Shown here: positions 583-31,358 of the stretch, piece after piece
Position numbering within the stretch: position 1 is the stretch's first letter
How the letters are laid out: each line of letters begins with the position of its first letter
Assembly: GCA_009103225.1 (NCBI GenBank)
Contig: RHPI01002112.1
Coordinates: 280,150-344,149, forward strand
Length of the DNA stretch: 64,000 nucleotides
Source: Chlorokybus atmophyticus
Taxonomy: Eukaryota; Plantae; Mesostigma and Chlorokybus algae
Reading direction: 5' to 3'
Translations under genes and position numbers: made by a program
The notes under the pieces: model-generated
The model's database searches: none
The model's input: the letters and a program-made list of their open reading frames with translations, nothing else
What the model was told of the DNA's origin: nothing

Positions 583-1714
583 ATGCATGGGGCGCAGCAG
601 ACTCAAGGCGATCCTGCTGGCAAGAAGCGAAAAGCAACAGCAAAGCGCACCAAAGACGCTGCTGTGAAAGGGAACAAAAGTGGAGGTGAATGCGACAGTG
701 ACGATGGTGTTGAATGGACCACTGAGTTGGTGGTGCACTTGTTTGAGGCATATGGGGAGGCCTGCGCCTTTCTCAAAATCAAGCACAAGGGCACTGCCAC
801 TAACAAGGCTATCTTCAACTTGACCGCGCAGCGCATGGGCATGCCAACAGCAGCCAATAAGGTTGGCAACAAGTTCAAGAACTTGAAGGCCACTTACATG
901 GTAGGCTTCATGTTGCTGGCGCCATCCGTGTGCTTATGTCCTTCTCTAATGCTGTTGGTGTCGTTGTTCTCTTTTGATTTCAACAAATATGTACAGGCAT
1001 ACGAAAAGGTGAGAAAGCAGAGCGGCCAGAACGACCCGCCAGTCGACAAACATGGGCAAGTGGTGAAACAACCACGGTTCTACAACCAATGCCATGGACA
1101 ATGGAAGACAACCAAGTCAACGGACTTGCCGGCCTTCTCCGACTCAATGGAGTTTCAACGCATGGCCATGCTGTACAAAGGCAGCGACGATGACAAGGAA
1201 GATGACACCGTGGGTGCTGAGGAAGACTGGGACACCTACAGCTATCCTGATTCGGAGCAGGACAAGTACGTGAACTACAATGGTGATGGTACTTTTGGTG
1301 ATGTGAAAGACCCTGCAGAACGTGGCAAGGCCAAGCGGCAACACAAGCAGCTGCGCCCACAAAAGGTAACAATTAGTTGTTTACTGATTACTGCCTAGTG
1401 CACAATCTAACAACCCGCCACTTGGGCAGGGTGAGCCGTTGGGTTGGCTCAAAGATTGGTTGTTGGCACAAGCAGAGGAGGAGCGAAAGAGACGTGAGGA
1501 GGAGCGAGACAGAAGTGAGCGCACAATGGAGTTGGAGGCCAGGCGAGCGGCAGATTTTCAGCAAGCGCGCCTTGATAATGAGCGCAGGAGACTTGACCTG
1601 GAAGAGAGGTTGGCAGTACAGGCCGAGCAGCGTGCTGCTCGTGAGCTTGAGCTGCGCAGAGAGGCGCAGCAACGTGATGCATTGTTTATGGCTTACTTGA
1701 GCAGTCAAAAGTAA
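583..1714 (+). CDS. Myb/SANT-like DNA-binding partner protein of a PIF/Harbinger transposon (3 exons: 583-900, 997-1365, 1430-1714)
   Basis: Trihelix-like WTTELVVHLFEAY...KVGNKFKNLKATY followed by an acidic region and a C-terminal coiled coil (EEERKRREEER...). GT-AG introns 901-996 and 1366-1429 are both phase 0 and keep the frame. It is convergent with a Harbinger nuclease. The 5' end is uncertain. Confidence 0.75.
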
Positions 1715-1942
1715 GACTAGTCATGCTCAGATTGCTTGAGACGTCTCTTGTTCTATAGACGACACACTAGATTTTACACAACAGGCACATGGGTTGATGA
1801 CATGTCGCAGTGTATGTTAATCAGCACAACTCGCACACCCAAGCGTTGAAGCAAACAAATGCATGCCAATTATCATTAATGTCATCGCAGCAAATTGTGC
1901 GATAGTCTGTCAATCAATCCACTCGAAAGCCGCACGTTCTGG

Positions 1943-3319
1943 CTATCCTCTTTCGCATAGCAAACCACCTTGATCTCGACCGCGTGGTCTCCCGCGTTGG
2001 GTGGTAGCTGCAGCCGCTATGTCGTTCAATAAGGCCCGATGCCTTTCGTAACGCAGGCGATCCTCCGCACTCATGCGCGCCTCATCATCCCCCTCCTCCT
2101 TGTGAGCCATGCGAAAGTTGTGCAGAATTATGCACGCCTCGCATACCAGGTTGATGACTGCGGGGTCGCGCACGCCAATGCCTGTCATCGTGACAAGCCA
2201 TACATTCTGGACGGCCCCAATGGTGCGCTCGATGTGCATGCGCACACTGCTGAACCAATGGTTGAAGTACGCCTCAGCTGAGCCTTCAGGCTCGGTCTCG
2301 AAAGGCACGATTACAAAGGGTCGTAGGGTGTAGCCTGCATCTGACATTAGCCAAGCGGCAGCCGGCCAGTCTCCCGCTTCGCACATCCTCCCCAATGCGC
2401 TGCACGACCACACTGTCTTGTCGTTGTTGCAGCCGGGCATGCCGCTGAAGTAGTTGGTGATGTACTCTCTGTCGTCACACACAATCATTGCATTGGTGGC
2501 GTAGTACCCTTTATAACACTTGTACTCGTCCGCTTGTTGCGAGGTCGGCGTGACAGGTCGCTGGTGTAAAAAGAGTGTGCCATCGACAATGCCGCATAGG
2601 CCAGCGAACCCGCGAAGATGTGGATTCCACGGTGCGCTCATCATATTGAAGCCTTGTTGAACCTGCTCCATTAAGCGGCCATATATGCCAGCTTCGGGAT
2701 GATGCGGACCGCCTGGCCAACGCACATATAGAGGCCCAACAACACGCTTCACAGCTAAGCAAAAGCGCTTTAACCCCCTGTCTGAAGTCGCCTTGCCAAT
2801 GCCAAAGAGGTGGGAGATGCTCAAGTCACTCTGGTTGTGGGCCAGCTTGTACAGCATGGCCGCCACGCGCCTCTTCAATCCAATGGCTTTGCGTCGGTTG
2901 GTGTCTTGCCGCTCGAGTCGAGGCTGCAACATGTCGCAAAGCAAATCAAAACCCGCACGAGAAATGCGAAAAGCCTCCGCCCATCCAGGTCCAGTCAAAT
3001 ACTGAGCATGACGATCCCACCACATTTCATCACGGAAATACTTCCACACTCGTCCGGTGAGGAGCATCCCAGACTCTGCGAGCAGCTGGCCAAGCATGGC
3101 TAAAAGCTGAGTAGATGGGTATGTTGCCACAGGTCTTTGCGAAAGCGGTGATGGTGCATGAGCCATCTCCAGCAACATGTCCTCTTCATCATGTATCTGA
3201 GCCAGCTGCAACCTGATATCTTCCATTTCCATGTCCATAAAGCCAAGCGAGACCACTTGTTGCTGCACATTCAGCAACCACATGACGATAATGATGCTCA
3301 TTGCGGTGGCGTCATCCAT
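1943..3319 (-). CDS. PIF/Harbinger DDE transposase (HARBI1-like nuclease)
   Basis: Uninterrupted ORF with HTH (LYKLAHNQSDLSISHLFGIGKAT) and motifs GIVDGT, PGCNNDKTVW, SDAGY, RMHIERTIG and ACIILHNF. The catalytic D-D-E is intact. Likely start is the Met at 3319, and upstream exons are possible. Confidence 0.92.
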   Translation of the reverse strand: MDDATAMSIIIVMWLLNVQQQVVSLGFMDMEMEDIRLQLAQIHDEEDMLLEMAHAPSPLSQRPVATYPSTQLLAMLGQLLAESGMLLTGRVWKYFRDEMWWDRHAQYLTGPGWAEAFRISRAGFDLLCDMLQPRLERQDTNRRKAIGLKRRVAAMLYKLAHNQSDLSISHLFGIGKATSDRGLKRFCLAVKRVVGPLYVRWPGGPHHPEAGIYGRLMEQVQQGFNMMSAPWNPHLRGFAGLCGIVDGTLFLHQRPVTPTSQQADEYKCYKGYYATNAMIVCDDREYITNYFSGMPGCNNDKTVWSCSALGRMCEAGDWPAAAWLMSDAGYTLRPFVIVPFETEPEGSAEAYFNHWFSSVRMHIERTIGAVQNVWLVTMTGIGVRDPAVINLVCEACIILHNFRMAHKEEGDDEARMSAEDRLRYERHRALLNDIAAAATTQRGRPRGRDQGGLLCERG

Positions 3320-4236
3320 TGTCTGTGCAATTGGGTCTGCACAGGCATGCACAGCTTGTTGGAATTGCAAACAGCATGTCAACCTCATCACACATACACA
3401 CACGGTTGTGTTAAAATGTGCTTGCATGATGTTTGGCATGCTGCAGGTGATGTCATGCATGTCTACAACTACTGGCAGCATATCCTGTCATCACACAAGC
3501 ATCACTGCTACTTCAACTGCCAGTCATAGAGCAAAGAATACAACTTGTAAAAGGATTTCAAGTACTATGCCTAGCAACACTCAGAGTCAATGCTAACTTA
3601 AGCATCAAGTATAACCCACTTACATGCTAGCCAGCCTGTCCTCACAATCTAATTTGCACGCCTGATGCTGCATCACAATCCATGCTTCACCGCTCTGGTA
3701 CTGGCCGACGCAGACCTGCCACAAGCTGAAGGTCAGATCTTCATTTGTGTGCCGCTCACATGTATGCCGACACACACTCCCATACAGACACCCACCAACG
3801 CAGACGCACTGACTGACTGGCACCCCCCCATCCCNACACACACTGATGCACTGACGAACGCGCTGTCTGACGCGAACACGACTTACTCCAACTACCCCAC
3901 CTCACGCACAGACACACGAGCCACACACGCACACACCAAAGCACCGACTGCCTGACTGACGAGCTGCAGTGCCAGCGCCCCGCCCACCCCCCAACCCCAC
4001 CCCACACATACCCACGCACACAAAAGCTTGCACACCGTACTTAATGATACGCATTCATACGACTCACCCGTATGCCTATTGTGCTGCTGTGCTGCCAGCC
4101 GCCGCCAACCACAACACGCCTGCCGCCGCCGCCCAAGACGCCAACGCCAGCGCCAGCGCCACCGCCACCACCAGAGCGGGCGTCACAATGGCGGCAAATC
4201 ACACCGTCGTCACTCCCGCGGCTCCCGCTGCTAGCA

Positions 4237-4245: not shown

Positions 4246-4478
4246 TCCGCTAGTAGTCAGTGTAGACTCGCAATAGGATGTGATAAATGAGCTGTTTTTC
4301 GAACGATTCATGTTCTATCCTATCCGACTGCTATTTGTCCGGTGGGGAGAGCCTTGTCAGACGTTGGACATAGTATCATACAAGGCACTGATATGTGCTA
4401 GCACAGAGCTGATTATTGTCGACAATCGTCATACGAACTAAGGTTATGTTACAATGTGGTGACACTGGTTGCTATGTA

Positions 4479-5197
4479 TGTCGTCTCCAGATAGGGGATG
4501 GCTTGAGAAATGCACACAGCAGTCACACTATGCACTCGTGGTATGTTTTAGCTAAGTGAAATGAGTTTACACGCTGCAAGCTCCAGGCACACATGTACGA
4601 GCAGGCACAGGTGCGACAACAATGGCTGACCGCTGTGCGCGAGCAATGTGGCAGCAATGAGGATGCGGTATGCAGGCAGCAGACGCGGTGACCACAACCA
4701 CAATAACAAACACTTACACCTTTGAAGAGCTTTAGCAAAGTCAAGGCTGAGGAGTGGTCTGCCAAGGCAGGGTGCCCACTAGTAACACACAACCCACAAC
4801 TGGTGCTAAGCAACACAACCTAGTCGCACTACTTCTACGTGGTCAGCTGATCAGTTTCCGGCAGTGTCACCGCCGCTTCGGCTCCAGTCCATTCACTTGC
4901 GACTTCCCGCCGACGCGTCCTGCGGGGAGTCCCTTTTGTGGTTGTCGGCACTGCCTTAGACCCTGGGTCCTGATTGGCGGAGGTCGCTGGCAGTCGACGC
5001 GGCCCGCCGCTATAGATGGCGGCGGCGGATTGGATGAGGCCAGGGTTGGCACGCGGCGCGCTTTGAAGGGTAGTCCGGAGTACTTGGTGATAGCGGCTGC
5101 CTCGAGCGGATCGGTGGATCCGGATGTCGATGAGGCAAACTGCTGCTTGAGGGGCTGTGCGAGGGGGAAGGGCGTGCCGAGGGCTGCTAGTGCGACA
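4479..5197 (-). repeat. 3' LTR (719 bp)
   Basis: 4491-5197 aligns to 16281-16993 with 11 substitutions and two net 3-nt indels by eye. It begins TGTCG and ends CGACA on the + strand. Confidence 0.92.
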
Positions 5198-5659
5198 GCT
5201 GTCGTGCAAGGCAGGCTCGACGGCCGAGTGCGTCTCGCAGTGCGGCAACACCAGAAAACGAGCAAAAGGGCACACTGGAAGTGTTCCGCAGTAATACACA
5301 AGGGTGGGGGGAAGGAGTGGCAAGCAAGCAAGGTAGAGGTGAAGACTACGGGTAGCAGCGCAGTATGGGATAGCCGGCAGGCAGTTGTTACTCACTCAAC
5401 AAGCTCACCCCCNNNNNNNNNNNNNNNNNNNNNNNNNNNNNNNNNNNNNNNNNNNNNNNNNNNNNNNNNNNNNNNNNNNNNNNNNNNNNNNNNNNNNNNN
5501 NNNNNNNNNNNNNNNNNNNNNNNNNNNNNNNNNNNNNNNNNNNNNNNNNNNNNNNNNNNNNNNNNNNNNNNNNNNNNNNNNNNNNNNNNNNNNNNNNNNN
5601 NNNNNNNNNNNNNNNNNNNNNNNNNNNNNNNNNNNCCCCCCCCCCCCCCCCCCCCCCCC

Positions 5660-7069
5660 TGGCCGGTTCATCGGCGTCCTCGCGATGAGCCTGGCACCTG
5701 TGACAACGCCATGGGCTGGCGCTGGAGGAAGTGGATGGTGCGTCCGAGGACAAAGGCGAGACACCAAGGTTACAGGCGGCGTGCCAGTACTCCCAGCAGG
5801 TGTCGCATTCTTTCGGAGGTGCGTCCGGGGAGGAGCACCCCGTGCAATGGGCAATGCGGAAGCGTGGGCGCGGTTTGCCCAGCCCCTCCACGTACGGCAG
5901 ATGACAGGGGAAGCAGTTCTCCACGTGGTCTGTCAAGGTGCGGCCAGTGGGGCTTCGCAAAGTGAGAGTGCCGAGTGCGCGTACCTGCGTCACGCGCCAA
6001 ACGGTGCCGTAATTGGCAGGATCCAAGGTGTTAGTGGTCTGCTGCTTGCGGTAGATGAAGTCGCCGACACGAAAGCGGCGCTCCTGTGGCTTGTAGGCTC
6101 CGCTGCGCACGTGTTCGTAGCGACGCGTGTCCCGTTGCTGCGCAATCTTCAAGTTGGCAAAAGCGATGGGGATACTGTCGTGCAAAATGGCTGCGCGAGT
6201 CTGCAGTACTTGCAGCATGCGTGTAGGGTTGTCGGCAATGTCCTCCACAGCTTGGGTGTCGTGACGGACGCGGAACGGCAGCAATGGCTCCCTCCCGAAC
6301 ATGAGGAAGTATGGGCTGAAGGAGCGCAGAGCAGCTTGGCGCGTGCAGCGGTAACCTAAGGACAGCCAGGGCAGGTAGTCGTCCCACTCAGCCTGGTTGT
6401 GAGTAAGGCAGTAGCGTCGCAGTGCGTTCTTCACAGTCTGTACCATTCGTTCAGCCAGGCCGTCAGCCTGGGGATGGTCACGGCTGGTGTGGCGGTGGTC
6501 GATGAGGGCGCGATGAAGCAGCTCATCCAGCTCGCCCTGGAACTCCGTGCCGTTGTCAGTGAGGAGTTCGGCGCAGGCGCCAACCCGGCTGAGGATGTGG
6601 TCCAGGAACACTCGTGCCACTTGAGCAGAGGACTTGTCAGGCAAGGGTACCAATTCAACCCACTTGCTGAAGTGCTCGATGGCGACCAGTATGTAGGTGT
6701 TGCCACGACGTGTGCGAGGCAGCTCGCCTGCAAGGTCCATGCTCCAGGGGTAGCCGAGGCCCATAATGGGGAGTGGGTGCAGCTGTGGGTGACGATGGGA
6801 GAAGCTAGCACGAATGCGATCGCAAGACTTACATTGCCGGAGTACATCAGCAACGTTGCGCGCCAGGCTGTCCCACCAGTAGTCGTTACGCACCATGTTG
6901 GTGGTTCGCTTCATGCTGAAGTGTCTAAGCTGGTGGTGAAGGTTGGCGATGATGGCAGCGCGACGGTTAGGGGCGGGACCTCCTTGCGCTGATTGGCAGC
7001 GAGCAGTCTCCACAGGATGCCGTTTTCCCAGCTGTAGTTCTTGGCGCAATGTTGAGCACGATCGATCTC
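5660..7069 (-). pseudogene. Integrase (HHCC zinc domain, DDE core, GPY/F-like region) with C-terminal PHD finger
   Basis: LHHQLRHF...CKSC, WSMDLAG, LLTDNGTEF, GLAERMVQTVK. Separated from RNase H by TAG at 7070-7072 and a 1-nt frameshift near 6973. The frame runs into a G-run and N gap with no visible stop. Confidence 0.92.
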
Positions 7070-8860
7070 CTAATGGGTGAGGCCTGAAGGTAACGCGCCT
7101 CCGCGTACCAGCTGAAGAGTGGGGGCGTTCTTCCAGATGTCCCCTTCGGCAACAGGGGGCAAAGTTGCACGCAGTACTGGGTTGCGTGCTTCTGCGCGGA
7201 TACCAGCGGCAACAACAAGCATAGCGTGATGCCGGGGGTGGTCGCTGTCATAGCGAGCTCCTGTGGCATCGACCGTGTCTGGGTTGGGGTTGCGACTCAG
7301 TCCGTCAGCGTCGGTGTTTGAGGCGCCAGGCTTGTGGGTGATAATGAAGTTGTATTCCTGCAACAGTAAAGCCCAGCGGGCATGTTTGCCGGTGAGTTTG
7401 CTGCTAGTGAGAAGCCATTGTAGAGGCTGGTGGTCTGTGACCAGCTCGAATTGGTGGCCAAAGAGGAATGGGCGGAAGTACTGGATTGCCCAGACCGCCG
7501 CGAGTTGTTCGCCTTCATAGCTGCTGTAGTTGGATTCTGCCGCGTTGTTGCTACGACTGGCATTGGCAATGACCTGTTCCTTCCCCTTAATGCCTTTCTG
7601 GCACAGCACCGCACCGAGCCCAAGCCTGCTCCAGTCGGTGTGGAGGATGAAGGGTTGGTTGTAGTCGGGACGAGCCAGGATGGGGGCAGACTGTAGGTGA
7701 CTCTTGAGGGACTCAAAAGCCTGCTGTTCTGCTTCCCCCCGGTTCCATGTTGTAGCTTTCTTCAGCAGGTCGTTGAGAGGCTTGGCAATTCTGGAGAAGT
7801 TGAGCACGAACCGCCGGTAGTGGTTGGCCAGTCCTAGGAGGGCCCGTAGCCGGGAGAGGTCGGTGGGAGGAGGAACCTTCAGCAAAGCATCCACCTTGGC
7901 CTGCTGCACCATGACCCCGTTGGGGACGATGAGGTGTCCGAGGTAGGGGATCTTGTCAGCGAAGAAGGTACACTTCTCTGGATGGGCCGTAAGCCCATAC
8001 TCCTTGAGTCTCTGTAGTACTTCCTTGATGTGCTGGAGGTGTGCCTCCGCGGTGTGGCTGAAGATGAGGATGTCATCTATGTAACACCTGGAGTTGTCCA
8101 GGCCGCGAAGCAACCTGTCCATTACGCGTTGGAAGACTGCAGGGGCGTTCTTTAGTCCGAATGACATGACCTTCCACTGGTACAGGGTCCGGTTGCCCCA
8201 CAAGGAGGTCTTACACTTGTCTTCTGGCTGGATGCCGATCTGGTGGAATCCTGAACGCATGTCCAGCACAGAGAAGTATGTGCACGTACCCACACTGTCG
8301 AAGATTTCGTCTGGAGTGTACATGCGGTAACGGTCGAGTACGGTGTGGGTGTTGAGGTCCCGATAGTCCCCACACATGCGGCGTTGAGTCCACTGTCCTT
8401 GCTCGTCCTTCTTCAGGGGCATGACGGTGGCGGCCGCATATTGTGTGCTGGGTGAGGCCTCCTCGATGAGTCCTGCGTCCAGCAGCTTGTTGCAGTTGGC
8501 TTCTATTAGTCCGGTCTCTACCTTGGACAAGGGATGCTGCTTCTTGAAGATAGGATTGGGGGTGTCCAGTTCTATGGAGAACTGGTGGAAGTTGCACTTG
8601 CCTAAGTCCTTGAGGGAGTAAGCGAACTGCTGCCTGTGGTTATCCAACAAGGTCTTCAAGTGCGTCTGTGTGTCTCCTGAAGCCATACATCCAATATGCC
8701 AGCCATTGGGTTCAAGCTCGTCAGTGTGCGGGATGTCCAAGGCCTCCTCCAGTTCCTGGAGGCTGGTGCCGTGCACGGCCATGGCGGCGATTGATGGGTC
8801 CCTGATGTTGGCAGTACCCCCCCCCCCCCAGCGGATGGCCCAGGCTCTAAGTGTGGCCAG
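7070..8860 (-). CDS. Reverse transcriptase and RNase H of the Gypsy element
   Basis: RRMCGDYRDLN, DMRSGFHQI, MSFGLKNAPAVFQR, YIDD (8072-8083), YLGH; RNase H LHTDWSRLGLGAVL, SYEGEQLAAVWA, VTDHQPL, NTDADGLSR. Confidence 0.96.
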   Translation of the reverse strand: MATLRAWAIRWGGGGTANIRDPSIAAMAVHGTSLQELEEALDIPHTDELEPNGWHIGCMASGDTQTHLKTLLDNHRQQFAYSLKDLGKCNFHQFSIELDTPNPIFKKQHPLSKVETGLIEANCNKLLDAGLIEEASPSTQYAAATVMPLKKDEQGQWTQRRMCGDYRDLNTHTVLDRYRMYTPDEIFDSVGTCTYFSVLDMRSGFHQIGIQPEDKCKTSLWGNRTLYQWKVMSFGLKNAPAVFQRVMDRLLRGLDNSRCYIDDILIFSHTAEAHLQHIKEVLQRLKEYGLTAHPEKCTFFADKIPYLGHLIVPNGVMVQQAKVDALLKVPPPTDLSRLRALLGLANHYRRFVLNFSRIAKPLNDLLKKATTWNRGEAEQQAFESLKSHLQSAPILARPDYNQPFILHTDWSRLGLGAVLCQKGIKGKEQVIANASRSNNAAESNYSSYEGEQLAAVWAIQYFRPFLFGHQFELVTDHQPLQWLLTSSKLTGKHARWALLLQEYNFIITHKPGASNTDADGLSRNPNPDTVDATGARYDSDHPRHHAMLVVAAGIRAEARNPVLRATLPPVAEGDIWKNAPTLQLVRGGALPSGLTH

Positions 8861-8869
8861 TAGCTGTTG

Positions 8870-9850
8870 CAGCGCTAGGCAGTGCTCCAGCAACCAGACC
8901 ATACTGTTCTGGTCCATGGCGCGTCCAAGCAGCGCGCGACAGTGGCGTTTAGAGAGCCGTGGCGCCGAGGTGACCGCGCCAGGCCAAAAGCCCATGGCGA
9001 GTTCGCGTTCAGTGGCGAGGGGCTCGCGTAAGCACTGGAGGTTGGTGTCCCAGACCATCCCCGTATTGCCGTTGCGGAAGGAATGAGATGCAGGGTATGC
9101 CACCAGCGTGGGCAGCGCGGCCATGGGGTGACCTACGCGGTTGCACTGATAGAATGCCTTGTAGGTGGCGTGGGTGACAGGCTGCGGAAGTGCTCCGTCA
9201 ACTAGGATGTCCTTAACCATTAGGTTGGGTGGGCGAATGGACAATGACTAGGCAGCGGCCAGGTCGGATGTGCGGGCCAAGTTGGTTCATTTGCTGCGCA
9301 GGCGGTGTGCACGGGAACCATGTGCTGCTGCATCAATGACTATGGGGTCGCCGAGGACGGCGCAAACCTGCGCATAGTCGTCCCGGACGTTGCGCCTGGC
9401 GTCGTCGCGAGCGGAGACGTTTTCGATGATGTAGGCGGGAGGCCGGTCTGGCTGTTGCTATTGGAGGGTGCGGATGATACGCACTAGCTCCCAGAAGAGC
9501 TGAGATCGGGGGTCTTGTAGACCAAGACCTTTACCGGCTCGGGAAGGACCCTGGCATTCCCAGCCTGCAATGACGAGGTCTATGCAGCCGAGGGATTGCA
9601 TGTGCTGGCTGTTGATAAGGCGAACGTCCTGTGGTAGAGCGTGGAGGCTACCGGCGGATGCCTGAGGATCCAGCAACGGATACCGACTGCGCATCTGTGC
9701 CAGGTGGTGAGACACAGTGTCTGAGCCTGCAGGTCGGGGTCGCAGTATAAGTACTTGCGTACTGGTACACCAACGTTGAGGGTGGCGGCGAGGCCACTGC
9801 CGATGCCGCCAAACAGCTCCAGGACCGTGATGCCATCCTTGTAGCGCTGG
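8870..9850 (-). pseudogene. DNMT3-like C5 cytosine DNA methyltransferase domain inside the pol polyprotein (disrupted)
   Basis: Motif I VLELFGGIGSG, motif IV DLVIAGWECQ (catalytic Cys), LFWELVRII, motif VI IIENV, motif VIII RAHRLRSK*TN, motifs IX/X ERELAMGF...RALLGRAM. One frameshift near 9716 and stops at 9458-9460, near 9287 and near 9249. Confidence 0.9.
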
Positions 9851-10904
9851 GTGGCAAAGTGGACAGTGGAGAGGTTCAACTGTCGCAAGCGGCTACTGGG
9901 ATCGGGCGGAGAGATCATCGGGGTGGTGGCCACGCGCTCAGCGACCTTCCGGGCCAGGCGTTGCCGATAAACAGGAGGTTGTTTGGCAACTTCCGAGGGT
10001 TGCCTGGGTGAAGAAGTTGTTTCGCAACGCTTTTCAGGGCGTGCACTGCCTGGATGATGAGCAGGGGCAGTTCCTGCTAAAGCTGTCGATGACGGCCCCA
10101 TCGGGGCGTAATGCAAATGTGCCATCTCGGCACCAGACTGAGAGCGAATGTGTCCCCTCCCCCCCCCATCCCAAACCCCGACAGATTGAGCCACAGAAAC
10201 CCACAAGCGCGAATGACNNNNNNNNNNNNNNNNNNNNNNNNNNNNNNNNNNNNNNNNNNNNNNNNNNNNNNNNNNNNNNNNNNNNNNNNNNNNNNNNNNN
10301 NNNNNNNNNNNNNNNNNNNNNNNNNNNNNNNNNNNNNNNNNNNNNNNNNNNNNNNNNNNNNNNNNNNNNNNNNNNNNNNNNNNNNNNNNNNNNNNNNNNN
10401 NNNNNNNNNNNNNNNNNNNNNNNNNNNNNNNNNNNNNNNNNNNNNNNNNNNNNNNNNNNNNNNNNNNNNNNNNNNNNNNNNNNNNNNNNNNNNNNNNNNN
10501 NNNNNNNNNNNNNNNNNNNNNNNNNNNNNNNNNNNNNNNNNNNNNNNNNNNNNNNNNNNNNNNNNNNNNNNNNNNNNNNNNNNNNNNNNNNNNNNNNNNN
10601 NNNNNNNNNNNNNNNNNNNNNNNNNNNNNNNNNNNNNNNNNNNNNNNNNNNNNNNNNNNNNNNNNNNNNNNNNNNNNNNNNNNNNNNNNNNNNNNNNNNN
10701 NNNNNNNNNNNNNNNNNNNNNNNNNNNNNNNNNNNNNNNNNNNNNNNNNNNNNNNNNNNNNNNNNNNNNNNNNNNNNNNNNNNNNNNNNNNNNNNNNNNN
10801 NNNNNNNNNNNNNNNNCCCGCCCTTTTCTTAGCCTACACTTACAGATGACAGAAGCGTGATACCGAAGGCAGCTTGACCCTGTCAGGAAGTATGGGTGTG
10901 TAGC

Positions 10905-11480
10905 CTAAGGTACGACTCCCTTGTGTTCGGAGAGGTGGAGGCCGTAACGCAGGGTGGAGTTGGTGCTTCTGATGGGGACGGTAGAAAAGGTGTACTGGGA
11001 GGAGTTGGAAAGGCGCAGTGGGATGGCTGCCGGAGTGCCATCGCCTTGGTACCAGCGCGGGCGAAAAAGGGCTTGCTCTGTCCAGGTGTTGATGGTGGTG
11101 CCGATGGGAAACAGTGCCTCCATGCCAATGAGTACGTCAAACATTTCGCCGTCGGTTACCAGGCAGAAGACGCCAAGGACGGTGGTTTGTTCGCGCTGTA
11201 GTCCAGTAAAGCGCAGGTTGACGCGCTGGCGGGTTTCCCCTCTGGTGCTCTGCACGACCCCTTGAGCGGTGCGAATCTCATGGGTCGCAGGGTTCAGGTC
11301 CTGAGTGCGGATGCCTAAGCGTTCTGCGGCGCGTCTGCCCATGATGACAGGGTGTGCCCCGGTGTCGAACAGCACATGTCGTGGGGTCCAGGCGTGGTTG
11401 GCAAAGGTGACATGGCCGAGGCGGTTGTTGACCATGCCTATGTTAGGTCGACAACGTCGACGGTCCAACATGCGTGGTGG
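10905..11480 (-). CDS. Retropepsin-like aspartic protease of the Gypsy element
   Basis: HVLFDTGAHPVIMG (DTG at 11358-11366) and FDVLIGM flap-side motif. Confidence 0.88.
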   Translation of the reverse strand, partial: PPRMLDRRRCRPNIGMVNNRLGHVTFANHAWTPRHVLFDTGAHPVIMGRRAAERLGIRTQDLNPATHEIRTAQGVVQSTRGETRQRVNLRFTGLQREQTTVLGVFCLVTDGEMFDVLIGMEALFPIGTTINTWTEQALFRPRWYQGDGTPAAIPLRLSNSSQYTFSTVPIRSTNSTLRYGLHLSEHKGVVP

Positions 11481-11491
11481 CCCGTAAAGGT

Positions 11492-14400
11492 TCACGGGGG
11501 ACTGTCCCGTGGGGGCGATGGGCAAAATGTCGGCGAAGGCACCGAAGTTAGGGCAACCGACACGATGCGTGACCCACCCTGCTCGTTTGAGGGTGGTGGT
11601 GATCGTGGTGCAGAGCTGGGCTGACCTGGGTCGTTCTCTAGTAGTGGACGGTATCTTGATGCCACGTCCATTGCCAGGCGAAGAGCTTCCGCAGTGATAG
11701 CGCGCTGCCAATTATGAGCCCGGTGGTCCCCGTAGGTGGCCACTGGCAGAATAGGGAGCAGCCGTACGTGCGCTGCTACCAAGTCCAGCTCTGCATCGGT
11801 GAGAGGGAGGACATAATGGCTGTCCTGCAGGACTTGGTCGGGTATGCCGGTGCCTGCGAGAAGCTCTGTCTCCACCTGTAGGCGGAGGTCCCTGGTATCT
11901 GCATCGTCCAGGTGAAGCTGAGAGGAGTTCCGTATCTGCTCCTCGTCGCGCCGGTTCTCCCAGTGAAAGAGCCTGTGCACGTCAGTAAGGTGTCGTGTAG
12001 TAGCAGAGCTCCGCTCGTAGGCTGGCATAGTGGGTGGCAATGAGTCCCAGTAGTTCAGCGCCCGTTCCAGCAACTGGGGTAGCCTGACGGTAGCCAGATC
12101 CTCGCACCATGCTTTTGGGTTGACGAACAGCCGGGGGTCCAAAGAGTGGTTTCGTGTGGCCAACCATTGTAGGAGAATATCTAACTCGGGCTCCGCAATG
12201 CCGCGACCCAACGCCACCACATCACCCAAAGGCCCTTCATGACGTGCCAGGTGGTATCGGAGCCGCTCCAGGCGTCTGCGAGTTTCCAACTGACGCTGGC
12301 CGGTGTGCTCGGCGTGATGCTCCAGTACTGCGCCTGAGCCGAGGATGGCAAAAGCGACGAAGATGCCTCCCCTGCGCCAAGGCGAGTCACCCGAAGTTGG
12401 ACTGGTCTGACCCTCCCCCCCCCCCAACACGGGGTGCGAGGGAGAGGCGCAGGGCATGCTGCGCGTCGCGCTCTGTGGAGTCGCGTGCAGGGGCGCCCTG
12501 TAGCAGCTGGCGCTGGCGAAGCAGCCACAGGAAACATCGGATGCGGATTGCATGTGTGGCCCAGTCTTCGGCCGCCACAGCAGGGTCCAGGCTAGCAGAA
12601 TACTGTCGATGGTGAGTTGCGCGTGTAGGGCACAGCAGGGCTTCATGGAGGATCTTCCTTCTGTGGTGTGACGGGGGCCACCAAAGGGGATGGCAGGTAA
12701 ACCATGGAGGACTGCCGGGTGCGCGCAGCGTCCTCGACAGGTGCGGGCGTGGGTTGAAGCGGCGTCGTCTGTGCGTGCGGTAACTCGAAGCCAGGCTCAG
12801 GCGCAACGAGCCAGGAACTTTCACCTGGAAAGCGCTCCGAAGCGTTGCCTAAGGGTGAGCGAAGCTGGCTGAGGTGGTGCAGCCGTATGCATGCTCGGGC
12901 CCGAGCGCGTTCGCGTACGTAGCGCATGGGAGGCTGCGTACCATCGTGAACGTCCTGCCAGATGGCTGTCAACTGATGCATTTGCATGCGGTAGTACTCG
13001 AGCTCCGGGGCGTTGCTGGGCAGGTTGCCCATGATTTGTTGCAAGCGTAGCGTCGGCAGGTGGCAGGATAGGGGGTATATCAGCCTCGCGGGGAGACGAT
13101 GGCGGCAACAGGGCCTTTGGGTGCTGTGCAGCGGCGCGAGCCTGTGCGCTAGGGCGAGGATCTTCCTCAAGTGGGGGCAAGGCGAAGGCTGCGGGTAACT
13201 GAGTTGTGGGTGCATCGAGGATGAACTCGTCTAGTGTGTCTCGTGTGGCCAGAGCGATCAGCCACCGCCGAGCAAGAAGGTGAAGACGTCCAGGAGGTTC
13301 GAAGGCGTTGTCCTGACGAACAAGCATGCCTTCAAGGACGTCGCGAACGACGCGGTGTTCCTGGTCGCTCAGCGCGGCAAGACGTCGTCGCTGTCGGGCA
13401 GACAAATGGGCATTAACGGGAACCAAGTGCACCTGTTGTCCCAACTCACGCACGAGGGTGGTGGTGAGCTGAGTGAGGCCAGCATGGTCGTCATCCGGCA
13501 GAACTGAGTCAGGGGGTGCGGCCAGCAATGGGTCCCCTTGCGTGTCGTCCAAAGCTTGCAAGGCCCAGCGTTCCACATTGTCTGGGGAGGCCCAAACCAA
13601 CGGCCAGGGTGCTTCCTGTAGGCGGTAATTGAGCCTTCGCACGAACTCCTGACGCCGAGCGTGTGCAGTGGGGGCAGCTGCGCCGGCTCCTAGCAGCTGG
13701 CGTTCCAGAAGGAGAGTGGCCCAGGTGTCCTCGTAGCATGCCACCATGCGGCCCCAGCGATGTAGTGCACCGCCCTCGGTGTGAGTACGAGGGAAGACAC
13801 GTAAGTGGATGGGACGAAGGGGTTGCAGAAATGCATTGTTGGGGAGCCAGGTGACGGACAGTTGAGCAAAAGATATGCGAAGCCGGCCCAGCTGTCGTGA
13901 CCAGTTGGACTCCGCCAAGGTGCGTCGTCCCGCAGTGGTGTTGTCTGTCAACGACAACATCCAATAAAAGGCGCTGGCTAGTGTGGAAGGCGGAAGGTGA
14001 TTTGGAAGCTGCCGCAACAGGTCACGCAGAGGCGGATGGTCCTGGTCGTCCTCAGGGCGTGCGGCTTCGGTGAGCACATCGTCCACCAGTGCCGCAAGGT
14101 GTGTCCGAATCCATTCCCGCAGGGCTTCTGCCTCTAGAGGTGTTGAGGCGGCATTGAAGTAGGCGGCGGCAAGCTGGTGCACAAAGGCGGTGGTGTGGGA
14201 CACCAGCTCTCCGACATGCCGTGGCAGCTCCTGAGGTTGCGGTGGCATGTTGCCAAGCGGCAGTGGAAGGCGTCTTGCGAGTGTTTGCCAGCGAGCTTGC
14301 AGCTGTGCCCAGCGTCGAGCGTTGCCGGCCAGACCTCGCTCCAAGTCAGAGAGAGTGGGTGCCCGAGACGTGGTTACTTGTGAAGTGGAGCCGACACGTT

Positions 14401-14500
14401 GCCGTTGCGCGGGAGGCGAGGGTGACCGATTGGGTGGAGGAGTGGACCGGCGACCTGAACGGGTAGCGGTGCCAACGATCCTGTGAGATCGGGCTGAACA
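11492..14500 (-). pseudogene. Large unrecognised coding block between nucleocapsid and protease, split across several frames
   Basis: Long overlapping minus-strand ORFs (12821-16003, 12643-13215, 12387-12824, 11492-12646) with protein-like, helical composition. No family recognised. Confidence 0.5.
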
Positions 14501-16176
14501 CGCGGCGAGGTAGTCGCAGTTGAGGAGATCTTCCAGTTCATCGCGGCGGCTGCGAAGGTCCTCGATCTGAGCCTGGAGGTTGTTCTTTTCCCCCTGTAGG
14601 TCAGGTGCGCGAATGGCAGAGGCGACTTTGGCAGCGGTCTTGGCTCCTAGCTTGCCGTGGACGGGTGGGTTGGTCCTACCCTTGCCTTTGCCCCTGCTAT
14701 CGGTGTTGCCGCCAAGGGGTGAGATGAAAGGTGCAGGCCTCAAGGCGGACTTCAGCTCGGGGTGAAGGGTGTAGCAGACGGATTCGACGTGACCGTCTAT
14801 GTCGCAGTGGGTGCAGCGGACATTGGTGCGCTGTACAGGGCACTCCCGCATGATGTGGCCTTCTTTGCTGCATCGGTGGCAGACCACAGAGGTGCTCTCA
14901 CCAGGACGGGTTACTGCGTGAGCAACGCGGAGGTGCCTGGCCGTGACGGTGGTAGGTGACGGCGTGGGCACGCTGCTGCGGCGCGAGAGGCCGCTGATCT
15001 CCAAGGCTGCCTGGACCTGTACGATCTCCTCCTGCCAGTGCACAGCGCGCATGTAGGCCTGGTACAAGGTAAAGCGGGAGGTGCCACGAAGATCGGTCTT
15101 GATGTGTTCTTGAAGAGTGGAGTCAAGGTTCTCCACGTAAATGATGGCCAGGTGCTTGGGGTTTACCAGGGTTTGGCCGTCGATAGTGGTCTCGTCCACC
15201 AGCTTGACAACACGTTCGTACATCTGAACAGGGGTCTCCTTGGGTTTCCTCCTAAGGCGAACCAGTTCCTGTGCCTTCTCAGCAGTGTAAGAAGGGAAGC
15301 GCTGGTTGAGGTGTTGAACCAAGTCTGCCCACGGTGACAATCGTGGAAGGGACGTACGGTCATCTTCTCCAGCAGGTGGGTGACGTACCGAAGGGGTAGT
15401 GGCAGCTGACATGGATGCCACCAGGGCGGTGGCGAAAGCGGTGGCTGCTTCAGTGCAACGTCGAGCGTAGTCCTCGTTAGACTCCTGCTCCAGCGCCGCG
15501 GGTGCCACGAAGGTGGTGTTGGTAGTGGTGCCGGAAGCACTACTGCTGGTGTCGCCCACCTCGCCTTGAACTGCCATTCCTGCTTGCGCCACGCGTAGCG
15601 GGATGCGTGAGCCCAGAGGTGACGCTCGAGGAGCGCCAAGGCTTTCAGCGGCGGAGATGAATGGCCCAAGCCCGGGGCTGGACCGAAGAAGACGCTCATC
15701 CTCGAGGAGGTCATGAGCGGTGGCAACTTCTTGCCAGACAGCTGCGGCGACGTCGTCAAGGTATTCTGCAGCCAGGATGAACTTCTGGTCATCGTCCCAG
15801 TTGAGGCCTGCACGAAGCTTGACTGGGAGGACGATGGCGCGGAAGCGATTAACCCATTCCCGCAGGGAGAGGGAGTTGGGAGCACTGGTGAAGCCAGCTT
15901 CCTGGTGTTGCTGCCGTTGGCGACAGGGTTGATGCGGTTGACAGATGTAGTTGCCATGTCTCCTTCGCTGTCGGAACTGAAGTCGCTGTAGGAAGGGAGA
16001 CAATTGTCTGAGGAAGGAGGCGCCGCGCCGTCGATGGTGCTCGTCTCCTCAGATGGTTCAGGGGAAGATTCCGGGGCTGTGTACGTCACAGGAGTGATGG
16101 GGTCAGCCCGCCTCGACCCTCTGAACGTCCTAGCTCGTCGCGCTCCCCAGCCAAGTCCTTGACTCCTTAGACGCAT
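14500..16176 (-). pseudogene. Gag (capsid-like core plus two CCHC zinc knuckles), with a frameshift near 15900
   Basis: Starts MRLRSQG. Core EWVNRF...LDDVAAAVW...LNQRFP...RRKPKETPVQMYER. Knuckles CHRCSKEGHIMREC (14840-14881) and CTHCDIDGHVESVC (14774-14815). Confidence 0.85.
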
Positions 16177-16253: not shown

Positions 16254-16267
16254 GGGAAGTCGCAAGT
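16254..16267 (-). promoter_or_regulatory. Candidate primer-binding site complementary to the element's own LTR (self-priming type)
   Basis: ACTTGCGACTTCCC on the minus strand, 1 nt inside the inferred LTR border. It is a perfect 14-nt complement of LTR positions 16688-16701. No TGG-initiated tRNA-type PBS is seen at this position. Confidence 0.55.
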
Positions 16268-16268
16268 C

Positions 16269-16993
16269 AACAAGCTCCACATAGGGGATGGCTTGAGAAA
16301 TGCACACAGCAGTCACACTATGCACTCGTGGTATGTTTTAGCTAAGTGAAATGAGTTTACACGCTGCAAGCTCCAGGCACACATGTACGAGCAGGCACAG
16401 TTGCGACAACATTGGCTGACCGCTGTGCGCGAGCAATGTGGCAGCAATGGAGGAGATGCGGTATGCAGGCAGCAGACGCGGTGACCACAACCACAATAAC
16501 AAACACCTACACCTTTGAAGAGCTTTAGCAAAGTCAAGTCTGAGCAGTGGTCTGCCAAGGCAGGGTGCCCACTAGTAACACACAACCCACAACTGGTGCT
16601 AAGCAACACAACCTAGTCGCACTACTTCTACGTGGTCAGCTGGTCAGTTTCCGGCAGTGTCACCGCCGCTTCGGCTCCAGTCCATTCACTTGCGACTTCC
16701 CGCCGACGCGTCCTGCGGGGAGTCCCTTTTGTAGTTGTCGGCACTGCCATAGACCCTGGGTCTTGATTGGCGGAGGTCGCCGCTGGCAGTCGACGCGGCC
16801 CGCCGCTATAGATGGCGGCGGCGGATTAGATGAGGCCAGGGTTGGCACGCGGCGCGCTTTGAAGGGTAGTCCGGAGTACTTGGTGATAGCGGCTGCCTCG
16901 AGTGGATCGGTGGATCCGGATGTCGATGAGGCAAACTGCTGCTTGAGGGGCTGTGCGAGGGGGAAGGGCGTGCCGAGGGCTGCTAGTGCGACA
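16269..16993 (-). repeat. 5' LTR
   Basis: Direct repeat of 4479-5197. The 12 nt at the inner border (16269-16280) match the other LTR only partially. Confidence 0.9.
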
Positions 16994-19373
16994 TGTATGG
17001 TGATCATGGGGCAACTGTGAGCTGTTCATGGCACTTTATGTCAGTGTAACAACTGGTTATCTATTGAATGTGTGCCATTGTATGTCTGCTACAGACAGCA
17101 GTAAGCTGTTGATGGCAACCTGTATTGTCATGTGTTGAACACTCCCAACAGTTTTAAATTAATATTTGGTTAAACTTGTTTGCCTATGAATATGACCTTG
17201 TGTCCATGTTGATGCCTCCGAGGTAATAGGCCTTGGTTAGATACTCCCGAGGTGGAGTTCAATGATCCCTATGTCGGAAAGTGGCATGTCACAGATCAGC
17301 GCACATTGACAAGGCCTTGTTGGCCTTGAACACCGTGTGCCAGGTCCGGGAGCGACATGTGGTATAAAGCTAAGTTGCAACCTTATGTGGGGATCAATGC
17401 ATCACTGTGTGTGTCTTGACCTTGCGAGAGGGCCACTTGTGCGTGGGGTGCCTGGCTAGTAGCTGTTGAAGGGGCTCTCATCCCTTGTGGGGTGTGCTAG
17501 CGTATGTGTGTGTGCGCGCCACTTTAGGTGCATGCGTGTGTGTGTGCCTGCGGCTAAAGCTGAGTGGAGGGGCGTGTGGTTATCCTTCTTTCGTGTGAGT
17601 ACTTGGCGTGGAAAGGTGTTTCGAATGTGGGTGTCCTCTCCTTCCAGTGGTGCAATAACCCTCATGTAAGGTGGTGCGCCGATGGTGGCTAGTGGGTCTT
17701 CCATCCATAATGTGTCCCAAGTCCTTATGCTTGTGCATATGTTGCCAAGCCAACCAGCAAGTAAGTAGGTGTGGAAACGTCACAAATGCACACTTACCGA
17801 TGACTTGTCAACCTTGCCGTCTACGCCCTTTCCATGTTGTTACATTAATGTCATGATAGGCTGTCATTGCATGTTGTGCAAGCCATACGCAACGATCGCA
17901 TCCATCACATACTCACATGACATGAGTATGTGACGGGATTGTGGCAGCGCTAAAGCATAAATGTGGAGATTAAGTAGATTTTGGCCCCAGAGCAGGCGTA
18001 CACCCTGCTCTGTTTGGCCAATGTTTGATCGAAGTGATTCCTGACAGTTGCATACACATCATATTGGCTCACGCATACGTACATACACCAATAGCCGTTA
18101 AGTTATTAAGCATAAACAATAAGCTTATTCAGATGCCTGAGAGGCGCAATTGAAATTGCTTTGAGTTGAGTTGAGTCGAGTCGAGTTTGGAGAATGACAA
18201 TGAAGTATGTGCGAGGTGGAAGAGGCGCTTAAAACTTGGCCTATGGCTCATTGAGCGAGCTAGGGATTAAAGGGTATCACGCTTGCTGTTAAGGGGAAAG
18301 GCCGCGCGCACGCTGAGCTGCCTCTCCCAAGCCGATCAAGCGTGAGAGAGGCAGTGTTAAGGGAGAGAAAGATGCTGCATTGAAATTTAAATGAGTTCAA
18401 GAGACAAAGGCAGCATTGGAGCTGAAGCTCGATTTGTTGATGAATAAACGATCTCTACTCGTAATCAGAGACTTGCGAGTTAGCAAGATCGCTCTCACAG
18501 ATATGCGATATTGGTAAACCTACTTCCGTTGTCGTACCATATATCTCAGTACTCGTGTTGGCAAAGCACGCTAAGTGAGGTGATCCAACTTGACCACATC
18601 GTCCCTTACCAAAAGCCCTACCCTCAGCCTTTCTTGCCACCGGCGCCACAATCACAATTTTCAAGGTTGATAAGGCAGTGAAGAAAAACAAGTGACAAAA
18701 ACATTGTCACTTAATGTCTTTCAAGAGCGTACGTGCTACTTGTAGATTGAATATCTTTAATACAGATTTTTCAGATATATGGAATAAGCGGATTTTTGGC
18801 GTACAGTGCGAACACTTGCGTGTTATTGTTGTTCAAATTGCACACTCAACGCAAATTTGTGCATCTGCCTATCCCTACTCTTGACCACTATAACGTTAAC
18901 AATTGTAGGCATTACGAAGCATAATAGCACAATTCTTTCACCTCCCATGCAGAGGGAAGGACATTAAGTCGCAACGAAGCGGTGCCCGTGAGAGGGCTAG
19001 GCACAGCTTCAAAAGAATTGGGACACATCACGATAAAGCCCAATATGCGCTATACAACCACCACCTCGTGCTCTTGCTTCTAGCACTGCCATAGGGTCTA
19101 GGCGCCACCCGCTGTCGCACGTGAGCGCACATATTGAAGCAACCAAGACCAGCTCTCTTTGGTGTCAATACCTACGTATATGCTTTACTAGATTACTTAC
19201 ACACCATCAATGCTTTGTCTATCTAAAGCAAGCTGGCAAACCAAAAGATTTTCTACAGGCTGGCAGGGTAGATGCAGCCAACCCACTACAAACCCCGATA
19301 TCTGCTCGAGACTGTTCGGTGTAGTACTTGACGCACACCGTCTCAGAGTGAGGTATGCCAATTATCTTCTCTT

Positions 19374-24503: not shown

Positions 24504-24758
24504 GGCAGATAGCAGTGTATTGGCTTGTCGTTTTGGGTTGTGTAGTGCAAGGTACAAGAAGCGATGGCGGCTCAGTGGCTGCGGGGCCCAATCAGTCGTT
24601 ATTGTCGTCAAGTCCAGGTCTTTGGTGCTGCTGCGGACAAGCCTGACATCCACGCATTTGTTGTGCAGATTGTTCCTGCTCTGCTTGCTCGCTGTGCTTG
24701 CTATCAACCCTGCCTTGCCCTGGCTGTGGGTGGTAGTATAGACTAGCCTATGCTGTCT
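24504..24758 (+). repeat. 255-bp direct repeat, copy 1
   Basis: Identical by eye to 30606-30860. Confidence 0.93.
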
Positions 24759-28900: not shown

Positions 28901-31358
28901 CGTGGAGTTGCTGGACACAAAAAGGTACTTCTCGCTCTCAGACTTGCCTATGGATACATGATACTGCTCATCATCCTGGACAAGGTCAAGAGCATCTTGT
29001 CAGATAGCACACATGGCAGGCTTTTGTCGCATATGAGCTTGATAGCAAACAAACCTCATGATAAACGCACACATCCTCCGTACTGGAAGTGCCAACTGTG
29101 TGCCTCCACAACTGCAGGCAAGCAGTGAGCAATAAGGCTTTTGGCACATAGGTGCAAGCCACATATTGACAACTCAGAACATACTTTGTGCGGCCGGTCA
29201 ATGTCATCCAGCGTGAGGTAGAACAAGCTGCGGTTGTCATTTGCCCACATCACATCACCGGCACAGTTCTCTACCCTTGTTGAGAGAAACTCGCCTGTGG
29301 CAAGATCCTGAAGTACACAACGTTTACAGCTTCAGCGCTTGCGCTGGAAACCCTTCACATTCCAAGCAGTGACAGGGTACATGCACTGCCCAGCATACCT
29401 TTACCCTCAAGGTGTACTTCTCGCCACCAGCAGTGTCTTCCATGATGGCCAACACTTGGTGATCAGGACTGACCTGTACACAACAGATAACAGCTTACGC
29501 CAGGCTACTTAGGCCCCCACCGTCGTCACCAATGCTATCAGTGTAGCAAGCTTACCGCAGCATCGCCGCACACGTAGTACTCATGCGCAGCAGCGCGCTC
29601 ATTCTCGTCAAGCAGTATTTCTTCCTGCACGCCAGAAACCAAGGCATAAGTAGGCGTACTCACAATGGCTCCAACAGTAACCAGAACCACGCTCACCGGT
29701 TCAGTGGTGACATCGTAAAGCGCTTCACCCAACCTGAGTGCCGGTGCACCTTCTGGGATGCGCCGCCTGACAGGCGGCAGCATTGCAACATGAGCGTCTT
29801 GTTCACCACCCCAAGAACAGACAGTTCAGATATTCTTAACTCACCTGCAGTGCACCCTGTACTGCTTCCCCTCCTCCATGCGGTCGTAGTAGTAGAACGG
29901 GCCATCCCTCTGCCATGGTTGAAGGAAACTGACAAGTCAGCACACAACATGCTGTAATGTGCAAAACACTGCTACAGCAGTAAGCTGAGCAACGCAAAGC
30001 CCTTACCAGTGCAACAGATTGCTCAGCCTCCTTGATGCGACTACGCATTTCTTTGTAAAGCTCTTCCTGCAACTCTGCAGTATCGGACAGTACCCTTTCT
30101 GTGTGTGTGTTCTCTGCAACAATGTAATCCAACACCTGGCATCACTTTAATCAGAATGCAAACAACAACAACCATAGCAGTCTGTACAATAAGCAAACAC
30201 ACGGACACAAGAGCTTCTGACTGCTTATGACAGCATCCTGACCTCCGGATCTTGACGTGCATCATCGCGCATCCAGTAGTAATTATCCACCCTTTTATCG
30301 CCACAAGCGGATGTGAGCACTGTCTTGACCTTCTTTGCCACTGGAGGGCTGGAAACACCTACAGTCGTCTTTGTGATGGTGATCCCAACTTCCTCATCGG
30401 ATGTGGCTGCAGCAGTCACACTGATAGACAGAACAGAATCAGCAGCAGCCTCACAAACAGTGTCCTACAACTCACAGTTACGGTTTGCTTTGCTTTCACC
30501 AAGGCATGCCTTCATTGTGCTTGCAGACAACAATAACAACTACAGGCAGGTAGCTGTGCGTGTGTGCTTGTCATACTGCCAATTGTGTGCTCGTGGGTCG
30601 GAGGGGGCAGATAGCAGTGTATTGGCTTGTCGTTTTGGGTTGTGTAGTGCAAGGTACAAGAAGCGATGGCGGCTCAGTGGCTGCGGGGCCCAATCAGTCG
30701 TTATTGTCGTCAAGTCCAGGTCTTTGGTGCTGCTGCGGACAAGCCTGACATCCACGCATTTGTTGTGCAGATTGTTCCTGCTCTGCTTGCTCGCTGTGCT
30801 TGCTATCAACCCTGCCTTGCCCTGGCTGTGGGTGGTAGTATAGACTAGCCTATGCTGTCTNGTTATATGCTACGGTAGCCTCAGCACCCTGACGACAACA
30901 TTGTGCATGATGTGCACTGTGAATCTGAGCCAGCGAAGCAGGCATTGCTCTTGCTGTTCCGTTCGCAAGTCCGAACCTCATGTTCCTATGACAAATATGA
31001 GTCAACTTGGATCAGCTCACCTTGACGCAGCGGTGACGAGTAGCTGCCGTCGGGTGAGCTCGCCTCCTGCATGTGCGCTCGCAGAGCTGCTGCCACCGCC
31101 AGCAGCATGTCCACCATTGGATCTGCTGCTTGTAGAGGAAGGGCCCATGCTACCCTTACGTGCCGACTGGGGGCGCAACGGGGATGAAACAGCAGATGCA
31201 ACGACCGCCGCAGCTGCCGCAGCCTGGTGCTGCTGCTGACCTGGCCTTGCTGACTGCCTGCCGGCTAGCCTCACGAGTGACGCCCCGCTCCCGGAAGCCG
31301 ACGCCCCACTCTTTGACACCGCTCCTCCCGTTGTCGCCAAGCAGGAAGCAGACGGCAT
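25912..31358 (-). CDS. opdB: Oligopeptidase B (protease II, S9A) with N-terminal organelle-targeting extension; many exons
   Basis: PPVAKKV...[67 protein letters not shown]. Catalytic triad GRSAG (about 26760), [12 protein letters not shown]. Exon 1 (31358-31021) splices in phase 2 to the exon ending at 30420. Confidence 0.92.
30606..30860 (+). repeat. 255-bp direct repeat, copy 2, within intron 1 of the oligopeptidase B gene
   Basis: Identical to 24504-24758 and ends exactly at a single N (30861). Confidence 0.9.

Follow-up and report, generated by a model that had tools for sequence, protein, structure and literature searches.

The closest described system to the locus reported here is KnitGypsy-Dnmt3 of Klebsormidium nitens, presented in the main text of its description as a Gypsy element whose Pol includes a non-rearranged DNMT3 and whose repeats are DIRS-like (de Mendoza et al. 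2018, PMC5890265). The initial annotation of our locus had named this 2018 work as a precedent for the capture of DNA methyltransferases (DNMTs) by retrotransposons, and KnitGypsy-Dnmt3 is indeed such a case. In the main text of the same paper, the domains of SymbioDIRS-Dnmt3 gave de novo CG methylation in yeast, and the KnitGypsy-Dnmt3 domain gave no methylation, a result its authors call inconclusive. A 2026 preprint, as far as its main text goes, places Gypsy-DNMT3 in streptophytes and describes EpiLTRs/DAM-LTRs, in which a DNMT sister to DNMT4 occurs with DAM and a chromodomain (bioRxiv 10.64898/2026.05.21.726589). Gypsy-7a_cRei of Chlamydomonas reinhardtii is described with a PHD finger and with a left LTR in which the last 8 bp of the right one are missing (PMC9940879). 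A full-text search for Gypsy-DNMT3 elements returned only PMC5890265 and the 2026 preprint, and these report them, supplements aside, from streptophytes only.

Chlorokybus atmophyticus is an early-branching streptophyte alga. We analyzed a window of 64,000 nucleotides from its genome (contig RHPI01002112.1, positions 280,150 to 344,149). The minus strand of the window carries a Ty3/Gypsy element of 12.5 kb, which runs from 16993 to 4479 and is flanked by the 4-bp target duplication TGTA. The coding order is gag with a zinc knuckle, an insert, protease, an N gap, DNMT, reverse transcriptase (RT), RNase H, integrase and a PHD-like finger. In our main reading, the DNMT region is the broken DNMT3-type domain of a Ty3/Gypsy element that belongs with KnitGypsy-Dnmt3; its counterparts in intact relatives would probably methylate cytosines of the element's own new cDNA before integration. 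We give this reading a probability of about 0.6. The features of the element are as follows.

16268–16993 (−): 5′ repeat A1; starts TGTCG and is without the terminal ACGACA of the 3′ end
16688–16701 (−): predicted self-primer within A1; its 14 nt can pair with the primer-binding position
16254–16267 (−): putative primer-binding site of the self-priming type, from its complementarity to the A1 site
14560–16048 (−): gag, with a CCHC zinc knuckle, at the start of an open frame of 1075 codons; profile match
11495–14560 (−): insert of ~900 codons in three open frames, between gag and protease
11067–11426 (−): aspartic protease; PF13650, E 1e-10
8870–9834 (−): DNMT3-type C5 cytosine methyltransferase, non-permuted; one frameshift and three stops
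7922–8575 (−): reverse transcriptase; PF00078, E 2e-33; shares its frame with the C-terminal half of the DNMT
7319–7663 (−): RNase H; PF17917, E 4e-34
6240–6977 (−): DDE integrase, H2C2 and core; rve and H2C2 matches; frame change near 6970
5694–5846 (−): PHD-like C4HC3 finger; local PHD profile, E 8e-5; the ORF ends in an N gap
5200–5412 (−): poly-G tract (at the N-gap edge), then repeat B1 ending CACGACA; layout common to relatives
5190–5207 (no strand): B1-A2 junction CGACA-GC-TGTCG; predicted integrase attachment site
4485–5197 (−): 3′ repeat A2, from repeat comparison
4479–4484 (−): terminal ACGACA, read as B2 reduced to its attachment end
4475–4478 (+): target-site duplication TGTA; second copy at 16994–16997

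The insertion is fairly young, since A1 and A2 differ by 13 substitutions in 707 aligned columns. The gag region at 15412–14564 is homologous to the gag of related loci. The spacer between gag and protease, which holds the insert, is far longer than in relatives. The insert (11495–14560) had no Pfam match, no meaningful PHROG match and no match among the fetched proteins, and its part at 11495–12796 had no usable Atlas match; it neither defines nor excludes a separate family. In the ORFs of the element, where rve and H2C2 were found, Pfam showed no tyrosine recombinase and no DAM domain. A chromodomain after the integrase, as in the chromoviruses Chlamyvir and Tcn1, was not seen up to the N gap in which that ORF ends. 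The initial annotation had placed a PHD finger after the integrase; the local PHD profile agrees weakly, and Pfam gave no match at this position. In sequencing runs X1 and X2, the matches listed were contigs with short pieces of near-identical copies outside the DNMT breaks. One X1 contig differs from the window by one base at 6969.

We compared the DNMT region with known methyltransferases. The motifs follow one another on the minus strand in canonical order within 9834–8870, as the initial annotation had claimed.

9819–9799 (−): motif I, ELFGGIG
9565–9551 (−): motif IV, GWECQ
9424–9416 (−): motif VI, ENV
9304–9296 (−): motif VIII, RxR
9010–8987 (−): motif IX, ERELAMGF
8938–8915 (−): motif X, RALLGRAM

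The position between protease and RT was likewise confirmed. A DNA_methylase profile, which had been proposed as a check, matched the motif IV–VI piece (PF00145, 36.1 bits against a cut-off of 22, E 6e-9). When the region was translated with X at the stops (read-through P0121) and compared with PDB sequences, human DNMT3A was best (E 1.8e-7, tail included). HaeIII and HhaI (1e-3 to 3e-3) and DRM (0.5 to 1.7) were weaker. Identity with plant DRM is out, since the motifs of the window run from I to X and are not circularly permuted.

This copy is broken. Motif I lies in a different frame from the rest of the domain, with the shift near 9735–9715; the profile positions continue across the frame change. 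Stops occur at 9460, 9289 and 9250, and each is one C-to-T-type change from a sense codon. The frame is open only from 9247 downward, through RT and RNase H (a 725-aa ORF). The claimed continuity of the C-terminal part with RT thus holds from 9247 down, but not for motif I or across the three stops. The frame relation between protease and DNMT cannot be read in this copy because a 599-base N gap (10218–10816) separates them. Four of the five pol lesions fall inside the DNMT (binomial p about 0.01, for a segment picked post hoc). A model of this read-through, predicted from 11 sequences, had a poor pLDDT of 64 and was discarded. The window copy yields no active enzyme, and the locus adds one more decayed copy to a kind of element already described.

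We ran a profile search over 1.84 billion representatives; 462 clusters at 50% identity matched the DNMT profile at E≤1e-30. Among the best 150 of these, the catalytic residues are nearly invariant: the motif IV Cys is present in 147/147, the Glu of ENV in 149/149 and the two Arg of motif VIII in 147/149 and 147/148. The residue before the catalytic Cys is Glu in 92/147 and Pro in 45/147. GWECQ had been singled out as a peculiar variant; in the same set it is the commonest single form of motif IV (65/147). Among the metagenome loci plus the window, GWEC occurs in 36/78 and GWPC in 21/78. These counts rule out decay as the origin of GWECQ; Glu before Cys is a family trait.

The proposed affinity with DNMT3, tail included, became clearer with the relatives. 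A profile of 67 relatives matched DNMT3A in the PDB with E 7e-24, ahead of DRM (8e-12) and HhaI (3e-9). A model of the intact natural domain of locus L013, built from 67 sequences, reached pLDDT 95.8. The top Foldseek match of this model was DNMT3A (E 6e-20, TM 0.71/0.83). DNMT3A and DNMT3B led both the Foldseek and the VIA-align rankings; in VIA-align the two had Z 28.8 and 27.3, the value of 28.8 being that of DNMT3B, with an rmsd of 2.6 Å over 273 residues. M.MpeI (25.6), HhaI (23.3), DNMT2 (21–22) and DNMT1 (19.2) scored lower. The domain resembles the catalytic domain of human DNMT3A/DNMT3B in fold, motif order and C-terminal tail. It differs in having only 20–25% identity, no PWWP/ADD, GW[EP]CQ for GSPCN and a longer target-recognition region. 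For the stop-free pair L013/L014, dN/dS was 0.13 in the DNMT and 0.08 in RT; pairs of decayed copies gave 0.3–0.5. The comparison points to purifying selection on the DNMT in this one clean pair of relatives, the window copy itself being broken.

The same residues bear on the reading of the DNMT as a nucleic-acid-binding or RNA-methylating module of the particle, with little or no DNA methylation. The negative yeast result for the Klebsormidium domain, as given in the main text of PMC5890265, and the Glu for Pro before Cys in most members would suit it. Against this, the Cys, the Glu and both Arg are near-invariant, and the fold is nearer to DNMT3 (Z 28.8) than to DNMT2. We consider such a module rather improbable.

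We also searched longer proteins with the RT-containing ORF, which gave 265 matches, 120 of them listed. Of those 120, the top 33 include 28 in which the local profile found a DNMT, and the lower 87 include 2. The DNMT stands before RT in 5 of these proteins, all from Closterium, and after RT in 25. Among the best 150 of the 462 clusters, the domain lies between RNase H and integrase in 91, between protease and RT in 13, and alone in 46. Named eukaryotes among 30 clusters looked up were Closterium, Hariotina, Scenedesmus, Pleodorina and Cymbomonas. Metagenome contigs yielded 282 confirmed stretches. We retained the best 80, a set that is skewed toward the subclade of the window and includes duplicates. 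In these 80 the DNMT precedes RT in 65, and 15 have no RT match; the domain is free of stops in 6, and in a single locus one open frame covers both DNMT and RT. A copy with the DNMT in frame with pol had been named as a further check, and the whole domain is in frame with Pol in P0004, P0368, P0443 and L027. In P0368 and P0443, protease, DNMT, RT, RNase H and integrase form a single ORF with GWECQ. PHD follows integrase in most long relatives. Among 31 candidates from viral contigs, 12 were confirmed, all as short matches around motifs IV–VI (residues 13–116 at most), and no full-length viral relative was among them. The Cymbomonas protein P0376 has a DNMT with GTECQ ahead of the integrase and no RT match; it was omitted from the RT tree. 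In the Pleodorina protein P0025, the DNMT, which lies between RNase H and integrase, is degenerate. Together with the lesions of the window, this indicates from sequence that the DNMT can be lost from these elements.

We built trees of RT and of the DNMT. The tree of RT and RNase H has 60 rows and comes from a quick search, with support by SH-aLRT only and a root at the midpoint. It unites the DNMT-bearing elements in a single group (99), within which two subgroups correspond to the position of the DNMT (95 and 100); the window falls in the protease-DNMT-RT subgroup. A tree of RT only (38 rows) gave the same grouping (97; subgroups 91 and 98), with Hariotina, Scenedesmus and Pleodorina in the subgroup other than that of the window. 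The DNMT tree has the same main split (95). Outgroups were other matches of the RT-ORF protein search, not named reference clades. In these trees a single RT clade, with members from streptophytes as well as chlorophytes, carries this DNMT at either of two positions in Pol. A single capture of the DNMT would be the simplest reading, and the elements may also have moved by horizontal transfer. This range is unreported in the main-text literature that we found, the supplements of which may cover chlorophyte members.

The broken window copy and the N gap beside it might suggest a chance capture of a host DNMT3 in one element, or an assembly chimera, without any role. This is very improbable. It is contradicted by the RT grouping of DNMT-bearing elements and by the 462 matching clusters, and Closterium proteins show this order too, as do 65 of the best 80 of 282 metagenome loci. 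In the window, moreover, the DNMT is continuous with RT inside an element with matching repeats and a target duplication.

By testable features that were found in full or nearly so, the window element belongs to the KnitGypsy-Dnmt3 kind, compared with K. nitens by description and not by sequence. No K. nitens name appeared among the 120 and 10 matches listed, nor among the 30 clusters looked up. Like KnitGypsy-Dnmt3 as described, the element has Gypsy domains with RT and RNase H before a DDE integrase, an intronless, non-rearranged DNMT3-related domain in the Pol ORF and a streptophyte alga as host. Its DIRS-like split repeats are full in relatives and reduced in the window. Unlike KnitGypsy-Dnmt3, it comes from a host in another class, is broken, and has a B2 of 6 nt and the 900-codon insert; self-priming and the internal junction are absent from the 2018 description, figures and supplement aside. 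The initial annotation had suggested that a DNMT combined with PHD, among other features, may define an undescribed family. For DNMT plus PHD this is not supported: the same order occurs in many relatives, and the repeats, in the window in reduced form, appear to match the description of KnitGypsy-Dnmt3.

The other described systems share some features with the Chlorokybus element. Like Gypsy-7a_cRei, it is a green-algal Gypsy with PHD whose left repeat is short (by 6 nt against 8 bp); the domain list in the description of Gypsy-7a_cRei names no DNMT. SymbioDIRS-Dnmt3, by the main text of PMC5890265, also has a DNMT3-type domain in Pol at two alternative positions and the A-coding-B-A-B arrangement, but it uses a tyrosine recombinase, in contrast to the DDE integrase of the Chlorokybus element and its 4-bp duplication of the target. 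EpiLTRs/DAM-LTRs, as far as the preprint's main text describes them, are likewise green-algal LTR elements that bear methyltransferases. The Chlorokybus element differs from EpiLTRs in having no DAM match and a DNMT that matches DNMT3, not a DNMT4-related enzyme.

Next to the 5′ repeat, on its inner side, 14 bases are perfectly complementary to a site within A1, whereas among 248 internal 40-mers taken as controls the best reached 11. This supports the self-priming suggested in the initial annotation. A match at the same place is 15 nt long in 7 of 20 related loci and 6–13 nt in the rest. The 64-kb window contains no tRNA gene. Self-priming is known in other LTR groups and, in the part of the source used here, is predicted for 12% of plant LTR elements (PMC6317226).

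With the repeats of L027 as probes, 36 related loci showed repeat matches. Upstream, A stands alone in 21 loci and B never occurs. Downstream, 11 loci have B-A-B, one (L038) has B-A with B2 cut to 27 nt, and 12 have B alone. The window has A...B-A plus 6 nt of B. In the window and its relatives, B1 begins directly after the poly-G tract. The B1-A2 junction has a 2-nt spacer in 12/12 loci and reads GACA-NN-TGTC in 9/12; L075 was excluded from this comparison, its long repeat belonging to another element. The A2-B2 joint varies from flush to near-total loss of B, with the terminal CA end retained. Both ends are present in 9 related loci, and 6 of them show a perfect 4-bp target duplication. A symmetric closed two-LTR circle predicts the mirror form A-B-A-coding-B; none of the 21 loci that have an upstream repeat shows it. 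Such a circle is therefore disfavoured, and the result argues for an asymmetric joint, e.g. an end-to-end jump of RT.

The split A-coding-B-A-B repeats and the conserved GACA-NN-TGTC junction suggest that the integrase cuts inside end-joined cDNA. The element RNA would prime itself, and plus-strand synthesis from the poly-G tract would give a B-A...B-A cDNA. The A end would then be joined to the B start, and cutting by integrase at the internal GACA-NN-TGTC site would yield A-coding-B-A-B with a 4-bp duplication. For a DDE integrase, the substrate predicted by this repeat anatomy would be an unusual one. Full-text search found nothing on such an internal attachment site, and self-priming and the split-repeat junction of Gypsy-DNMT3 elements are unreported in the main-text literature found; the supplements may cover the repeat mechanism.

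Two observations on the repeats can be added. An 11-nt word occurs both at the A1 end (16267–16277) and at the B1 start (5397–5407); as a microhomology, it may help to join the two ends of the cDNA. The 12 of 36 loci in which the element ends after one B are L086, L078, L046, L049, L075, L023 and duplicates, and L086 retains its 4-bp target duplication. These single-B elements could be products of B1-B2 recombination or single-LTR intermediates.

As to what the DNMT does, intact elements probably use it, because its catalytic residues are near-invariant, dN/dS is 0.13 in the one pair and it has long been inherited together with RT. Judged from sequence, methylation of cDNA, as proposed in 2018, would be its likeliest use. 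The DNMT would be translated with Gag-Pol, enter the particle and act on extrachromosomal double-stranded cDNA, so that the insertion would arrive pre-marked. Several results speak against this: the silent Klebsormidium domain, the lesions clustered in the DNMT of the window, and the absence of extra CG loss in the element (CG observed/expected 0.81, against 0.71–0.72 in the flanks). The Glu for Pro in motif IV of 92/147 relatives, the degenerate Pleodorina domain, the dN/dS of 0.3–0.5 in decayed pairs and the missing mirror form also weigh against the main reading.

An active DNMT might instead act in trans on integrated copies or host chromatin, guided by PHD, for self-silencing that would limit copy number or to silence competitors, and not on cDNA. 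The PHD after integrase in most long relatives fits this, and slower transposition is among the options in the main text of the 2018 paper (PMC5890265). A stop at the same position between DNMT and RT, in two subfamilies and 15 loci, points the same way, as the DNMT may reach Gag-like levels. However, protease processing would part the DNMT from PHD, and the DNMT has remained part of Pol in both of its positions, as one would expect of a protein that works in the particle. We regard action in trans as unlikely and continue to prefer methylation of the element's own cDNA.

The linker stop was found in L013 (at 5083), L014, L015 and related loci. CAR comes next after the stop in L013, L014 and 13 loci of one GWPC subfamily; in L013 and L014 the sequence reads TAG CAG TTA, which we take to be a leaky-stop context. 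The window and the L027 subfamily lack the stop. Programmed read-through, with the DNMT made together with Gag-PR, is possible.

More tentatively, these elements may form an ancient Gypsy lineage with an active DNMT3 that predates the chlorophyte/streptophyte split and moved within Pol. Their self-primed, end-joined cDNA would be self-methylated, and the DDE integrase would cut a palindromic site internal to the LTR, a convergence on the split repeats and methyltransferase of DIRS elements. We would not yet bet on this wider view.

The value of the locus is comparative. It extends Gypsy-DNMT3 to a streptophyte lineage that is among the earliest to branch, and it connects the Chlorokybus element with chlorophyte ones of Hariotina, Scenedesmus and Pleodorina. 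What it adds is the host, the chlorophyte range, the two positions of the DNMT and the anatomy of the junction. Intact natural domains with Pro-Cys (L013) and with Glu-Cys (P0368, P0004), and a chlorophyte one (P0319), make the 2018 question of the activity and substrate of Gypsy DNMTs testable.

The window has other features outside the element. At 583–3487 lies a PIF/Harbinger-like pair, with a DDE_Tnp_4 transposase at 1946–3487 (−; E 3e-25) and a facing ORF at 583–1395 (+). Identical 255-nt direct repeats at 24504–24758 and 30606–30860, 6.1 kb apart, flank part of an oligopeptidase-like gene. At 50018–50501, 44-nt inverted repeats 366 nt apart adjoin a 66-nt tandem array, possibly a miniature DNA transposon. 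An exon of the host at 51263–52078 shows 100% identity to a EukProt protein with the label jgi/Chlat1, which we take to denote Chlorokybus; the matches that follow reach at most 87%. A 160-codon stretch at 62181–62660 (+), which we take to resemble plastid ndhH, is probably a nuclear copy of plastid DNA.
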